Sequence record: SRR2962707_5052
Direction: 5' to 3' (one strand)
DNA: 54,391 bases
Below are positions 23,984 through 28,439 of the stretch, one piece after another. Position numbers and translations under genes: made by a program. Each line of letters starts with the position of its first letter. The stretch's first letter is position 1. The notes under the pieces are model-generated. The model searched no databases. It worked only from the letters and a program-made list of their open reading frames with translations, and had not been told where the DNA came from.

Positions 23984-25504
23984 ATGTCAATTCCATTATT
24001 CAACTCGATTGCTTCATGGCTTTTAAAAAAGCGTTTTCATCAGATGGAACTTTTTTTAAAATATCCAGGAGAAGTACAAACAGAGGTGCTTATTCAATTA
24101 ATGTCTGTAGCTAAAGATACCGAAATGGGGAAGAAGTATGTTTTCTCCGAAATTGAGTCGTATGCTACCTTTGCCGATCGTGTTCCAATTGTTCGCTATG
24201 AAGATATTGAACCAATGATTGAAAGAGCTCGCAAGGGAGAAAGTAATATTTTTTGGCCTTCAAATATAAAATGGTTTGCAAAAAGTAGTGGAACTACCAA
24301 TGCTAAAAGTAAGTTTATTCCTGTAAGTACAGAGTCGTTAGAAGATTGTCATTTTAAAGCAGGGAAGGATATGCTTTCTCTTTATTTTAATAATAATGAA
24401 GACTCTAAGCTTTTTACTGGAAAAAGTTTAAGACTTGGAGGGAGCAAGGAGCTGTATCAAGATAATAACACTTTTTTTGGAGACCTTTCAGCAATAATTA
24501 TTGATAATATGCCTTTTTGGGCAGAAATGAGTAGTACGCCTAGCAATAAGGTGTCTTTAATGAGTGAGTGGGAAAGTAAGTTGGCAGCTATTGTAGAAGA
24601 AACAGTTAGGGAAGATGTTACAAGTCTTGCCGGAGTACCATCTTGGATGCTTGTTTTGTTGAATGAAGTTTTAGAAAAGACAGGAAAAAATCATCTGTTC
24701 GAAATATGGGAGAATTTAGAAGTATACTTTCATGGAGGAGTAAGCTTTAACCCATATAGAGAACAATATCAAAAAATATTACCACGAAAGAATTTTAGGT
24801 ATTACGAAATTTATAATGCTTCTGAAGGCTTTTTTGCTATTCAGGACCGTAATAACTCGGACGAATTATTATTGATGCTTGACTATGGTATTTTTTATGA
24901 ATTTATCCCGATGGATGTTTATGGAACCCCAAATGAAAAAGTAATTCCACTTTGGGAAACAGAAATAAATAAAAATTACGCTATTGTAATTACCACAAAT
25001 GCGGGTTTATGGCGCTATTTAATTGGAGATACCGTGCGTTTTACGTCAACGTCTCCTTACAGGATCAAAGTAACAGGGAGAACAAAACACCATATTAATG
25101 TTTTTGGAGAAGAGCTAATTATAGAGAATGCTGAGGAAGCCTTACAAAGAGCCTGTAAAGAAACAGGGGCTGAAATAATAGATTATACTGCAGGGCCTAT
25201 TTTTATGCAAGGAAAAGAAAAAGGAGCGCATGAATGGTTGATAGAATTTAGAAAATTACCAGAAGATATTAATGTTTTTGCTGGGGTAATGGACAATGCG
25301 CTTAAAACTCTTAATTCTGATTACGAAGCTAAGCGTTATAATAATATTACACTTAACATGCCAACCATACATATTGCAAGAAAAAATCTTTTTTATGATT
25401 GGTTAAAGAAATACGATAAGTTAGGAGGACAGCACAAAATCCCTAGACTCTCTAGCAATAGGCATTATCTAGAAGAGTTACTGGAAATGAGTAAAGGAAA
25501 CTAA
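23984..25504 (+). CDS. GH3 auxin-responsive-like (acyl-adenylate-forming) family protein
   Basis: FAKSSGTT..KSKFIP, YNASEGFF, GLWRYLIGDTV, GGQHKIPRL. Confidence 0.88.
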   Translation: MSIPLFNSIASWLLKKRFHQMELFLKYPGEVQTEVLIQLMSVAKDTEMGKKYVFSEIESYATFADRVPIVRYEDIEPMIERARKGESNIFWPSNIKWFAKSSGTTNAKSKFIPVSTESLEDCHFKAGKDMLSLYFNNNEDSKLFTGKSLRLGGSKELYQDNNTFFGDLSAIIIDNMPFWAEMSSTPSNKVSLMSEWESKLAAIVEETVREDVTSLAGVPSWMLVLLNEVLEKTGKNHLFEIWENLEVYFHGGVSFNPYREQYQKILPRKNFRYYEIYNASEGFFAIQDRNNSDELLLMLDYGIFYEFIPMDVYGTPNEKVIPLWETEINKNYAIVITTNAGLWRYLIGDTVRFTSTSPYRIKVTGRTKHHINVFGEELIIENAEEALQRACKETGAEIIDYTAGPIFMQGKEKGAHEWLIEFRKLPEDINVFAGVMDNALKTLNSDYEAKRYNNITLNMPTIHIARKNLFYDWLKKYDKLGGQHKIPRLSSNRHYLEELLEMSKGN

Positions 25505-25654
25505 TTTTTCTTTGGAAAAATTAGCTAGATATTGAAAGATAAATGTAGAAGTGTTTTTGTAGAGGTATTAGCTATAAGTTGAACAGACCAACAAAAATTA
25601 TTAATAAATTTAAATAATCAAACTCTAATATGAATCCATAACTGAAGTTGAAAA

Positions 25655-26089
25655 ATGAAATTCCTGATTAACAAACCATATCTGATTTTTTGGACATCTA
25701 TTCCGATAATAATCTTGTTCGGAATTTTGACTAAAGCAGACTCTTTCGGATTTAATATTTACGACACTTATTTTATAATTGCAACTAATGATTTAATAAT
25801 CCTGTTTTCATTCCTTTTTGGAATAATCGGGCTTGGATATTGGACTATGCTGAAAGCAAATAGAAAACTATCCAAATGGCTGAATTTCACTCATATTGTG
25901 CTGACTTTTGGCGGAATTTTGATAATTTGGATTTTATCTCAGCTTTACAGAGAATCGATAGAGGAATTTGATTTTAATGATAATCTGACTTTTGCAATCT
26001 ATTCAATCGCTTTGATTACTGTTTTCGGACAAATAATATATCCGATTAATATTGTAAGCGGATTAATAAAAAGTAAACCCAGTGGCTAA
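25655..26089 (+). CDS. 4-TM membrane protein resembling the C-terminal helices of heme-copper oxidase subunit I, lacking heme ligands
   Basis: FNIYDTYFIIATNDL (cf. HDTYFVVAHFH), KLSKWLNFTHIVLT (cf. LGxIHFWxT), GQIIYPINI. Confidence 0.6.
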   Translation: MKFLINKPYLIFWTSIPIIILFGILTKADSFGFNIYDTYFIIATNDLIILFSFLFGIIGLGYWTMLKANRKLSKWLNFTHIVLTFGGILIIWILSQLYRESIEEFDFNDNLTFAIYSIALITVFGQIIYPINIVSGLIKSKPSG

Positions 26090-26149
26090 CATGTGTATCA
26101 GGTACACCTTATAAAATAATTACTATTTTTTTATAAACACGTTGGCAAC
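26082..26149 (+). repeat. attC-like imperfect inverted repeat
   Basis: GTGGCTAACATGTGTATCA (26082-26100) vs reverse complement of 26131-26149 (GTTGCCAACGTGTTTATAA): 14/19 identical, AAC/GTT core. Confidence 0.55.
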
Positions 26150-26161
26150 AACTTGAAACAA

Positions 26162-26396
26162 TTAAATGTGAATTAATTCAAATGCATAATTATAATCTAT
26201 TAAGCTTTTGCTTTTTTCATTTTCTAGCCAAGCTTTTTCCTCATGGCTTTTCTCCATTATTTGGGTAGCATTATACCCTCTAAATGTACTCACAATAATA
26301 ACTTTTGTGATTATATTCGAATTTTTATTTTCGAAATTCTAAAGTGTTTTTTTTAATTTGTAAGGTCATTTTCTTACCTGTGATTGGACTTTTCGT
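26162..26396 (-). pseudogene. Internally deleted antitoxin pseudogene (MqsA-like N-terminus, SocA/DUF4065-like C-terminus)
   Basis: Reads (ACG)KSPITGKKMTLQIKKNTLEFRK*KFEYNHKSYYCE, then in another frame TFRGYNATQIMEKSHEEKAWLENEKSKSLIDYNYAFELIHI*; start mutated, in-frame stop, middle missing. Confidence 0.75.
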
Positions 26397-26414
26397 AATT
26401 AACTTGTTTTTAGT

Positions 26415-26763
26415 TTAATCCTTAAACGGGAATTCCATAAAGAATTCAGCTTTATGGAAAGAAATGCAAATTGCTTGGTCTGTGATTTGAGAGATAGTCA
26501 GCTTAATATAAATTTGTTGCCCTTTAATTATTTCACCAAAAATCCACATTTCAGTACCTCCTTGTTGAGCTTCCTCTAAAGGACCTTTACTGTAATCCTC
26601 AATTTCTAGATTGAGAATTATTTCTTCACGCATTTTAGCAGTGATATTTATATCTGCAAGATTTTGAATACTATTTTTAGGACGATTGGAGAAGATAATG
26701 CCCCATACTTTAATAATCCTTCAGTTTTTGCAAGAAAGATTTTACAATTGATTTATCTGCCAT
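26415..26763 (-). pseudogene. Frameshifted MqsR-like toxin
   Basis: ATG 26763 MADKSIVKSFLQKLK, frameshift near 26718, then IIKVWGIIFSNRPKN...DYSKGP...MWIFGEIIKGQQIYIKL...ICISFHKAE. Confidence 0.75.
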
Positions 26764-26811
26764 TTTTACGCGTCAAATTCAATCTAAATATAAATGTATT
26801 TTAAATATAAA

Positions 26812-26867
26812 ACACTATAAAGTTGATTTTAAATATATTATATAGTGTAATTTCAACTTTAAAGTGT
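26812..26867. promoter_or_regulatory. Paired quasi-palindromic operators upstream of the TA operon
   Basis: ACACTATAAAGTTGA (26812-26826) and TCAACTTTAAAGTGT (26853-26867) are inverted copies, 14/15. Confidence 0.55.
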
Positions 26868-27083
26868 AGATTAAATTAGCTTATGTCATTCCCTATTAAA
26901 ACACCAACCCATTATAAAATTTCTACTTTAGTTTGTTGCTAAAAGTATCCTATACAGTTGCCCTAATTTTCTTATGAAAGACCAGTAGAAGATTTGTGTA
27001 TCTCTATTTTCTAGTAAAAAATTGGTTGTAATAATTTGATTTATAGTGATTTTACTTCAAAGGTGTTTGCTTGAAAAACCTTT

Positions 27084-28439
27084 TTAGATAAGGTTTAAAA
27101 GTAACCTGATAATTTCACTTTTTTCAGTTTCATTATTCATGATATAAAATTCTTTTAATTTAGAAAGGTCATTTTTATCCCATATTAAATGCTTGTTGTT
27201 CTCAAACCAAGATTTTATATTTTCTGTGGAGAGATTGCAAATTTCTTTTTCTAATACATCATCACCTTTTAATGAGGGTACATTTAATGTTTTGCCTTCG
27301 GTTACATATTTGTCCACCTCTTCTCGAATAGGAACCATATAAGGACTATGAGTGTTGTTTAAAATTATAATAACACTTTTGGTATTTATAAAGCGTTTGA
27401 TATACGATTTATTTCCTGCCCAACTTCCTGTATGATATATAGTTTTGTTTTTTGCTGTTGTATCTGTAATATGCCATCCATAACCATAGTCTGAAGGATC
27501 TTTGCTAGGAGGATGAGGAGTGAAGGCTAAAGCTTTACTTTTTTCATTTAAAAAATTGGGAGTGTGAAGAATGCTATCCCATTTCAATAAATCATTAACA
27601 GATGTTGAAAGTCTTCCCGAGCCATACCTGCCACTTAAAAAGGTGTAATATTTTTTTCCTTTTAATAATTCAGGTTTATCAAAAGAGCAAGTTTTTGGGT
27701 TTAACATGTAGCCAGGAGCATAATTTTTTGCTGTCCAAATATTATCTCGTTCCCAAAAACTACTGTTATTCATTTGGGCAAGTTGGAAAAGATATTCCTC
27801 TAAAAAAATATCAAGTGTTTTACCGCTTACTTTTTTTACTATAACCGCCAAAAGCACAAAACCAGAGTTGGAGTAGTGGTATTTTTCTCCAGGAGTACTC
27901 TCTAAAGGAGGCTTGCTTTCTGTAAAATAATTAAGGATATCTTGGTTATAAGCTATGGTTGTTGTATCCCATTCTTTTTTAAAATATGCTTCATAATCTT
28001 TTAAACCAGAAGTATGCGTTAGTAAATGCTGTATTGTAATTTGATGATACGGAAAGTTATTGCCTAGATATTTATAAGCATATTCATTTATATCTAACTT
28101 ATTTTGTTGAGCTAATATTTGAATAGCAGCAGCAGTAAATTGTTTGGATACCGAAGCAACTTCCATAGCTGTAGAAGGGGTAAAAGGAGTTTTTAATTGA
28201 AAATTAGCAACACCATATCCTTTTTTAAAAATAAGTTTTCCGTCTTTTTTTATAGCAACAGCACCATTAAACATTCCTTTGTTGGTAAGGTCATTAAAAA
28301 AGGAATTTAGGAGACTATCATTTTTGAAAGTATTTTCCGTCTGCACTACTTTATTAATCTCCTTTTTGCAAGCTGTAGAGAAAAGAATAAAAAAACTAGT
28401 ACATAGGTAGAAGAAAATGTTTTTTATATTGTATTTCAT
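27084..28439 (-). CDS. SxxK serine hydrolase (AmpC/AmpH/D-peptidase-like), lipoprotein
   Basis: Lipobox STAC; ASVSKQFT, LLTHTSGL, YHYSNSGF, YHTGSWAG. Confidence 0.87.
   Translation of the reverse strand: MKYNIKNIFFYLCTSFFILFSTACKKEINKVVQTENTFKNDSLLNSFFNDLTNKGMFNGAVAIKKDGKLIFKKGYGVANFQLKTPFTPSTAMEVASVSKQFTAAAIQILAQQNKLDINEYAYKYLGNNFPYHQITIQHLLTHTSGLKDYEAYFKKEWDTTTIAYNQDILNYFTESKPPLESTPGEKYHYSNSGFVLLAVIVKKVSGKTLDIFLEEYLFQLAQMNNSSFWERDNIWTAKNYAPGYMLNPKTCSFDKPELLKGKKYYTFLSGRYGSGRLSTSVNDLLKWDSILHTPNFLNEKSKALAFTPHPPSKDPSDYGYGWHITDTTAKNKTIYHTGSWAGNKSYIKRFINTKSVIIILNNTHSPYMVPIREEVDKYVTEGKTLNVPSLKGDDVLEKEICNLSTENIKSWFENNKHLIWDKNDLSKLKEFYIMNNETEKSEIIRLLLNLI

Follow-up and report, generated by a model that had tools for sequence, protein, structure and literature searches.

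The attC sites of integrons are imperfect inverted repeats whose consensus has a left box RYYYAAC and a right box GTTRRRY, and the ability of a tyrosine recombinase to handle such sites in folded form is ascribed to an extra domain of the integron integrase IntI. The locus described here lies within a stretch of 54,391 nt from sequence record SRR2962707_5052, read on one strand; this whole stretch is called the window, and coordinates refer to it. Positions 25568–26141 contain a small open reading frame (ORF) followed by an attC-like inverted repeat, which an earlier note on the same DNA had taken to be a stray member of a cassette system of the Bacteroidota.

Integrons are regarded as nearly absent from the Bacteroidota (PMC9024848). 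The part of that article consulted, which presents IntegronFinder 2.0, gives only In0 in Bacteroidetes from an earlier survey, plus one complete integron in Salinibacter ruber; it mentions Bacteroidetes three times, and the string 'Flavobact' occurs 0 times (PMC9024848). Recombinase-associated acquired interbacterial defence (rAID-1) clusters are described from gut Bacteroidales (Ross et al., 10.1101/471110). In the sections of that preprint consulted they are defined by a 5′ XerD-like recombinase >44% identical to BF9343_RS08045 of B. fragilis, followed by at least two co-directional genes of low GC content (10.1101/471110). Clusters of attC sites lacking an integrase (CALINs) include one in the Polaribacter phage P12002L, which has a host in the Flavobacteriaceae; as given in the portion of the paper seen, recombination of attC with attI1 by IntI1 was found for one of its two predicted sites (PMC9892861).

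We consider it likely from the sequence comparisons that 25568–26141 represents one gene cassette from an integron-like gene-capture system of the Flavobacteriaceae, located outside any array and very probably immobile. The features of the locus are itemized in Table 1. The ORF belongs to a family of Flavobacteriaceae proteins of ∼144–146 aa, with 91 homologs at E ≤ 0.001 among 193 candidates. The closest of these, in Mangrovimonas (L058, 75% identity), Polaribacter (L059, 69%) and two Flavobacteriaceae metagenome-assembled genomes (MAGs; L061 from Winogradskyella, 58%, and L063, 54%), sit among small co-oriented ORFs in arrays. A site of the array repeat family, detected with the covariance model R2 (below) at E ≤ 0.01, starts at the ORF stop in six of 36 homolog loci (L058, L059, L061, L063, L066 and L090), and the homologs at L062 and L069 likewise lie within arrays. 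Cassettes with the same ORF are thus found in attC-like arrays of other genera, in keeping with the stray-member proposal.

The 5′ boundary of the cassette is sharply placed by homology. Similarity to the Polaribacter cassette begins exactly at TTAGC, starting with the TT of 25568; from there to the ATG 70 of 87 window nucleotides are identical, compared with 25 of 48 to the left of the junction, where Polaribacter has the end of the preceding site and the window has unrelated DNA. The boundary at 25567/25568 coincides with the place where a preceding recombination junction had been proposed, from the likeness of ATTAGCTATAAGTTGAA, which begins at 25567 and 88 nt 5′ of the ATG (25655), to the right-arm sequence GTTGGCAACAACTTGAA; the two are identical at 12 of 17 positions (counted by eye). 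At the other end, the ORF stop codon (TAA, 26087–26089) is embedded in GGCTAAC (26084–26090), as had been noted. The left box context ACCAGTGGCTAAC is common to the window and the Mangrovimonas and Polaribacter copies, and is near-identical in L061, L063 and L066, lying after an earlier stop in the last of these. The Mangrovimonas and Polaribacter cassettes also have the leader start TTAGCC... and the left box AGTGGCTAAC as in the window. The right end AAACACGTTGGCAACAA equals that of array sites at L150, agreeing at 18 of 19 positions with one of them in a count by eye.

Table 1. Features of the cassette locus and its surroundings in the window
Feature	Position	Strand	Remarks
Gene cassette	25568–26141	+	Bounded by the TT of A↓TT (left junction) and the G of the right GTT box
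ORF, 144 aa, small membrane protein	25655–26089	+	Related to the helix-X region of haem-copper oxidase subunit I
Degenerate attC-like site	26081–26147	+	Best R2 match in the window, 26080–26151
Site: left box AGTGGCT+AAC	26081–26090	+	
Site: inner hairpin GTGTA/TACAC, 5-nt loop	26093–26097 / 26103–26107		From DNA folds
Site: AT-rich filler, 27 nt			Between inner hairpin and AAACAC spacer
Site: spacer AAACAC	26135–26140	+	
Site: right box GTTGGCA	26141–26147	+	
Left flank, 30-nt imperfect direct repeat	25507–25583	+	Without an attC-like site
MqsA/Panacea-type antitoxin remnant	26162–26380	−	Convergent with the cassette ORF
72-aa ORF, weakly MqsR-toxin-like	26415–26633	−	Upstream partner of the broken antitoxin
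Doubtful second site	26864–26962	+	Weak R2 match 26864–26956, 13.1 bits, E 0.61

The model R2 is built on a seed of 33 array sites. The repeat that it describes is ∼125–140 nt long, structured, and located between small co-oriented ORFs, with an AAC...GTT core. It begins with ∼7 variable nt, followed by AAC, a 3-nt spacer, a 6-bp inner box (for example GTATAT, GGCTAT, GTGCAT or GTGTAA), a further stem and a variable centre, and then continues through the complementary inner box, a 6-nt spacer (typically AAACAC), GTT and ∼7 variable nt. AAC and GTT are invariant in all 33 seed sites, for which RNAalifold gives 16 base pairs with compensatory changes in 11. With R2, 39 sites were gathered at five loci; 10 belong to the nearest genome, G001, and were not part of the seed. 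AAC is present in all 39 and GTT in 38, with one gap. In this set 94.2% of cells pair (74.3% in shuffles; 23–36% in slid controls) and the covariation score is 0.472 compared with 0.113 in shuffles, none of 500 reaching 0.472, on an alignment that was fitted to the R2 model, which favours structure. Shorter sites of 75–105 nt also occur in arrays (L079 353–427 and L061 2265–2369), scoring 31–38 bits.

Successive sites of an array are linked by a footprint, which carries most weight in reading the repeat as a recombination site. In consecutive sites, the 7 nt that follow GTT in the first and the 7 nt that precede AAC in the second are reverse complements, with a mean match of 6.24 of 7 and at least six matches in 33 of 38 pairs. 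The corresponding comparison of a site with its own right box gives a mean of 3.07 (at least six in 6 of 44), and that of all 1,892 other pairings a mean of 2.86 (at least six in 7%). The five misses include both pairs of locus L167, where the sites are 3.5–4 kb apart, and one was mis-parsed by the script. This is the pattern that would be expected if the units were exchanged by a cut between G and TT (G↓TT, the arrow marking the crossover), as in integron cassettes. In the window the same footprint appears as a match of 4 of 7 together with the homology boundary at 25567/25568.

The arrays are associated with tyrosine recombinase genes. In G001 an array of 10 sites (L166) follows a 368-aa recombinase ORF, the first cassette ORF starting 20 nt after the recombinase stop, and a further three sites (L167) follow an identical-ended twin of the recombinase elsewhere on the chromosome. 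Both loci are far from the one equivalent to the window locus. A tyrosine recombinase encoded elsewhere, with tandem arrays beside it, is what had been anticipated, and in G001 it is found in two copies directly upstream of the arrays. Arrays follow the recombinase at five of six recombinase loci examined, in the same direction, and the layout recurs in Polaribacter, Mangrovimonas and a Gilvibacter MAG. At L149, in a Winogradskyella MAG (G044 C8:1–12000), a recombinase of the array-linked family lies at the contig start, and the following 10 kb contain no R2 site; this is either an orphan recombinase or an assembly break.

The recombinase comprises PF13495 and PF00589 with an N-terminal extension of ∼90–105 aa, the array-linked proteins being ∼370–400 aa in length. 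The best of 36 matches to the integron integrase model TIGR02249 in G001 scores 120.6 bits, for a cut-off of 265 bits; in five other array-bearing genomes no single stretch exceeds 107 bits, and model positions ∼180–240 are unmatched. The alignment to the archaeal XerA-type structure 4a8e is continuous, and that to VchIntIA (2a3v) falls into two pieces, chain residues 180–247 being replaced by 25 residues. On these comparisons the enzyme is classed as Xer-like, lacking the IntI-specific segment, and not as an integron integrase. A related protein labelled as coming from a Bacteroidales MAG (P0208) is 65% identical to the G001 recombinase.

An attI-like junction may be seen behind the recombinase genes of G001 (L166 2950–3000 and L167 2650–2710). 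The platforms agree with each other as far as ...CAAGTG and differ after TT. Both contain the inverted repeat TATAACTACAAT/ATTGTAGTTATA, and in three further genera the corresponding position has TATAACGAG↓TT. The window itself contains neither a recombinase-headed array nor such a junction.

The system seems to be common among marine Flavobacteriaceae. At E ≤ 0.01 R2 sites occur in all 10 genomes of the window's genus, with 1 to 74 per genome (22 in G001), and at E ≤ 1e-5 they occur in 105 of 121 sampled Flavobacteriaceae genomes and 104 of 120 sampled genera, in a count that was capped at 26 sites for each genome. In a sample across the phylum 21 of 141 genomes have sites at E ≤ 1e-8. Beyond the family (genomes G177–G289), sites were seen in 12 of 21 genomes of family f39 and in single genomes of four more families; none was found in families f32 (0 of 28 genomes) and f18 (0 of 9).

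The inverted repeat of the window is by itself not above chance. In the best ungapped register the arms 26082–26100 and 26131–26149 are complementary at 14 of 19 positions over a span of 68 nt, closing with CACGTTGGCAAC at 26138–26149, just as the earlier note had it. The window contains 291 pairs of arms of at least 14/19 with a span of 50–130 nt, or 5.3 per kb. The minimum-energy DNA fold of the site consists of three small local hairpins, leaving the long-range pairing unused. Its z-score is −1.66 for the + strand, where 19 of 200 shuffled sequences reach the same stability, and −2.48 for the − strand, where none of 200 does. The boxes do deviate from the attC consensus, as had been remarked; on direct reading GGCTAAC fits RYYYAAC at 6 of 7 positions and GTTGGCA fits GTTRRRY at 5 of 7. 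The significance of the site comes from its homology to the repeat family reached through the relatives of the ORF, and from that only.

A covariance model of the window site by itself (R1) detects no second copy: the next best match in the window has E 0.84, 41 related genomes give four matches at per-genome E values of 0.03–0.93, and no copy is seen in the 36 homolog loci. R1 is too specific to see the site family. The pattern GCYAAC-N40-120-CGTTRGC, put forward in the earlier note, gives 11 matches in G001 and 10 in a reversed control and is uninformative. One of the 11 (L011) turned out to lie inside a true array (3,886,200–3,886,339), and the pattern is both too loose and too strict. The Rfam models match nothing over 25300–27200 except for a chance match to CRISPR-DR25 (E 0.97), and nothing over 7.1 kb of the G001 array. 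No terminator-like site (a G+C-rich stem followed by a run of T) is present in a scan of 25300–26700.

Compared with array sites the window site is degenerate. Its R2 match scores 18.1 bits (E 0.059), where array sites score 26–127 bits; only the two ends align, with 41 nt where the model has 110. There is no R2 match in the left flank (25507–25583) and no partner site on the left, and the locus has a single credible site rather than an array of at least two co-oriented ones, the second candidate having an E of 0.61. G001 has the locus in the same form, at 99% identity. No joints are seen at the locus in contigs from four public runs, each of a different study (X10, X12, X13 and X15), and 25000–27500 is spanned by one colinear contig in two of the four, although contigs cannot reveal rare excision products. 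The site is rearranged, and this copy of the cassette is probably dead. It is read as fixed, or fossil, because it has no left partner, its site is rearranged and the locus is unchanged in G001 and the four runs.

The left flank contains a direct repeat (25507–25536 and 25554–25583, 70%) that copies the 5′ end motif of the cassette, TTAGCTA...TTGAA, at a distance of 47 nt on the 5′ side of the real junction. The heptamer ATTAGCT is found at 25520 and 25567; three of its nine copies on the + strand of the window are in the 1.6-kb segment. The flanks 25505–25654 and 26634–27083 are single-copy in G001, and no meaningful match to them was found in array or recombinase loci.

The cassette ORF encodes a four-helix membrane protein. 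Many of its homologs carry precomputed PF00115 matches, and they match profile positions 314–410 of 436 with 33–52 bits, for a cut-off of 34.8 bits. The window protein itself has no Pfam match at E ≤ 0.1 and falls outside haem-copper oxidase subunit I as defined by the PF00115 cut-off. It reads YDTYFIIATNDL where the homolog in G012 reads HDTYFVIAHFHL. The motif HDTYFVIAHFH is kept in the G012 homolog, and cassette-borne copies have lost some or all of these histidines, which we take to be the ligands of helix X.

Upstream of the cassette lies a gene of the GH3 family (23984–25504, + strand), and on the far side a convergent beta-lactamase-family gene ends at 27084. In G004 and G007 a stretch of ∼43 nt with a clean hairpin separates the GH3 gene from the convergent beta-lactamase-family gene; window positions 25497–27080 have no counterpart there. 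The ORF is present in one of the 10 genomes of the genus. Since the segment has no counterpart in these congeners and the ORF occurs in a single genome of the genus, it is an insertion in a variable spot. Across the genus (loci L043–L052) the GH3 gene may be followed by a beta-lactamase-family gene, clpX, katG or others, and in G001 all that is left of the beta-lactamase-family gene is an 84-aa remnant beside clpX. No R2 site was found downstream of the GH3 gene in the nine other genomes of the genus.

The remainder of the inserted segment contains a decayed toxin–antitoxin pair on the opposite strand, with the attC-like site lying in the 72-nt gap between the convergent genes. The antitoxin is broken by a nonsense codon and by a 773-bp out-of-frame deletion between 11-nt direct repeats (26290–26300). 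An intact version of 335 aa is present in G001 (L001 2362–3369; PF13274 with 67 bits and PF15731 with 25.6 bits), where the whole toxin–antitoxin region covers L001 2362–3606. In X12 and X13 one contig each runs through the deleted form, and the breakpoint shows no gap. The 72-aa ORF matches PF15723 at E 0.01 and 16.7 bits, below the cut-off of 26.2; it is still open and shares 97% identity with its counterpart in G001. A near-perfect 14-nt inverted repeat, CACTATAAAGTTGA / TCAACTTTAAAGTG, at ∼26813–26866, some 180–230 nt upstream of the start of the toxin-like ORF, is possibly an operator of the pair.

Several observations weigh against the interpretation as a cassette that left an array. The E value of 0.059 for the window site is not significant alone, and its inner stem is off the canonical spacing. 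The left junction is A↓TT and not G↓TT, and the 5′ end of the cassette (TT+AGCTATA) matches its own left box at 4 of 7 positions, where those of the Polaribacter and Mangrovimonas cassettes (TT+AGCCACA) match theirs at 6 of 7; two transitions separate the window 5′ end from its left box. The more distant ORF homologs are found in ordinary operons without sites or room for them; at L023 the homolog stop overlaps the next gene, and at L024 there are 12 nt to rsmE. The insert exceeds the cassette, because ∼63 nt to its left, and the toxin–antitoxin part with 450 nt of non-coding DNA to its right, are also absent from G004 and G007, which leaves a clean insertion of a single cassette in doubt. Arrays in the window's own genome are inferred from G001, and the proposed mechanism (below) is read from patterns in the sequence alone.

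The extent of the insert leads to the alternative that the cassette and the toxin–antitoxin pair together are the remnant of a two-cassette fragment of an array, a decayed CALIN-like piece brought in by homologous or illegitimate recombination, with the second site truncated just after the first half of its left box. The absence of the whole of 25497–27080 from G004 and G007 fits this, as does a sequence near the right end of the insert. The right box GTT+GGCAACA predicts AGTTGCC before the next AAC, and this heptamer, which has just three copies on the + strand of the window, is found at 26956–26962, where ∼0.025 would be expected in a 450-nt region, directly after the weak R2 match that makes up most of the doubtful second site. 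It is followed by CTA and not AAC, however. By itself the R2 match lacks significance, and its candidate left box fits the chain rule at only 3 of 7 positions (by eye). In the 121 family genomes one further homolog of the antitoxin was found (L165, 48% identity), and R2 detects no site within 1.5 kb of it. An origin as an array fragment is rather unlikely in our view, and we prefer to regard 25568–26141 as a single cassette. It might instead still be mobile, its short site being a functional minimal variant that the array recombinase can excise or move. The outer boxes and the AAACAC spacer are intact, the inner 5-bp hairpin is present, and short sites of 75–105 nt do exist in arrays (L079 and L061). 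Those score 31–38 bits against 18 for the window site, though, and continued mobility is improbable given the lack of a left partner, a locus identical in G001 and the contigs of four runs and studies without joints.

The two remaining explanations concern what the site is. It could be a chance palindrome or a weak bidirectional terminator beside an ordinary accessory gene, the likeness to a cassette being coincidental. The frequency of equal-quality palindromes (5.3 per kb), the position of the site in the gap between convergent genes and a lowest-energy fold of three small hairpins are all compatible with this. Nothing terminator-like was found in the scan, however, and coincidence would have to account for a 5′ homology boundary exactly at the crossover point, a right end agreeing at 18 of 19 positions with an L150 array site and a left box context common to array copies, so that we regard this explanation as very improbable. 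Finally, the AAC...GTT core, the stop codon in the left box and the G↓TT footprint are also those of a classical integron cassette moved by an IntI integrase. This is the least credible explanation, and extremely unlikely: TIGR02249 has no match above 265 bits in G001 (best 120.6) or in the five other array genomes, the recombinase aligns to 2a3v in two pieces with residues 180–247 replaced by 25, and it is co-directional with the array. The reading as a single cassette of the Flavobacteriaceae system, fixed outside an array, is retained.

The system may be envisaged as follows. Small genes would each carry a 3′ site of ∼125–140 nt that could fold as a hairpin, formed by the outer AAC/GTT box, an asymmetric 3-nt/6-nt spacer and the inner covarying stem, and these units would be stacked co-directionally behind the Xer-like tyrosine recombinase of ∼370–400 aa. 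A folded strand would be cut at G↓TT by the Xer-like enzyme, and exchange between the G and TT of the right box would give a cassette that starts with TT and ∼7 nt complementary to the left box at its own 3′ end. The window ORF would be such a unit, ending inside the left box and having its leader and left box as in the Polaribacter and Mangrovimonas array copies. It could have entered a secondary A/G↓TT site on the 3′ side of the GH3-family gene, or alternatively have arrived as a piece of an array together with the neighbouring toxin–antitoxin pair. Later decay would account for the absent left partner, the lost or rearranged site centre and the two transitions at the 5′ end.

A wider proposal may be made, which we offer tentatively and at a little under even likelihood. 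Most Flavobacteriaceae (R2 sites in 105 of 121 genomes) would carry an integron-like machine in which an Xer-like recombinase performs G↓TT chemistry on folded hairpins, and the window would show that this machine can in addition place lone cassettes in ordinary intergenic DNA, at secondary sites, and that these are then fixed as new genes of the chromosome. The same cassette logic, including the G↓TT footprint, appears to operate without the IntI domain in 104 of 120 sampled Flavobacteriaceae genera. If this is true, the origin and minimal requirements of integron-type recombination become testable in a second, independent system. What the window adds is a cassette that would have left its array to become an ordinary fixed chromosomal gene; array exit followed by fixation is one way in which such systems could feed new genes into core genomes.

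A literature search covering listings and passages of the papers cited here found no description of chromosomal arrays in Flavobacteriaceae. The suggestion that the system is undescribed holds to that extent, but rAID-1 clusters, the nearest known counterpart, have the same layout and have been described in Bacteroidales. Going by the layout as set out in the sections seen, the rAID-1 clusters and the present arrays are alike in having a 5′ XerD-like recombinase, co-directional genes and integron-like intergenic repeats, within the same phylum. They differ in cargo, which is immunity genes in rAID-1 and an oxidase-subunit-I-like membrane protein in the window, and the rAID-1 text, as far as it was covered, contains no G↓TT footprint, folded-site model or mention of Flavobacteriaceae ('flavobacter' occurs 0 times; 10.1101/471110). 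CALINs resemble the window locus in having attC-type sites without an adjacent integrase. In the part of the paper covered they have at least two sites, whereas the window has one credible site, and the phage sites were predicted with classical attC models (PMC9892861).

The differences from integrons lie in the recombinase and in the details of the site. The Flavobacteriaceae recombinase is without the IntI-specific segment, fails TIGR02249 and has an N-terminal extension of ∼90–105 aa; it is co-directional with the array and in G001 is ∼20 nt from the first cassette ORF. The boxes are TGCCAAC/GTTGGCA-like rather than RYYYAAC/GTTRRRY, and the spacers are asymmetric (3 versus 6 nt). The system is not counted as an integron, since its working would be integron-like but it fails the defining test for IntI. 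The likeness otherwise is close. In both, a single promoter-poor ORF precedes each imperfect inverted repeat with its AAC...GTT core, the left box may contain the stop codon of the ORF, and exchange occurs, or would occur, between G and TT. As in the sedentary chromosomal integrons, the sites are homogeneous within a lineage, and an attI-like junction may lie behind the recombinase gene (...CAAGTG and then TT, from the comparison of L166 with L167 in G001). The lone cassette of the window, without a left partner, recalls the class 1 cassettes that are inserted at secondary sites.

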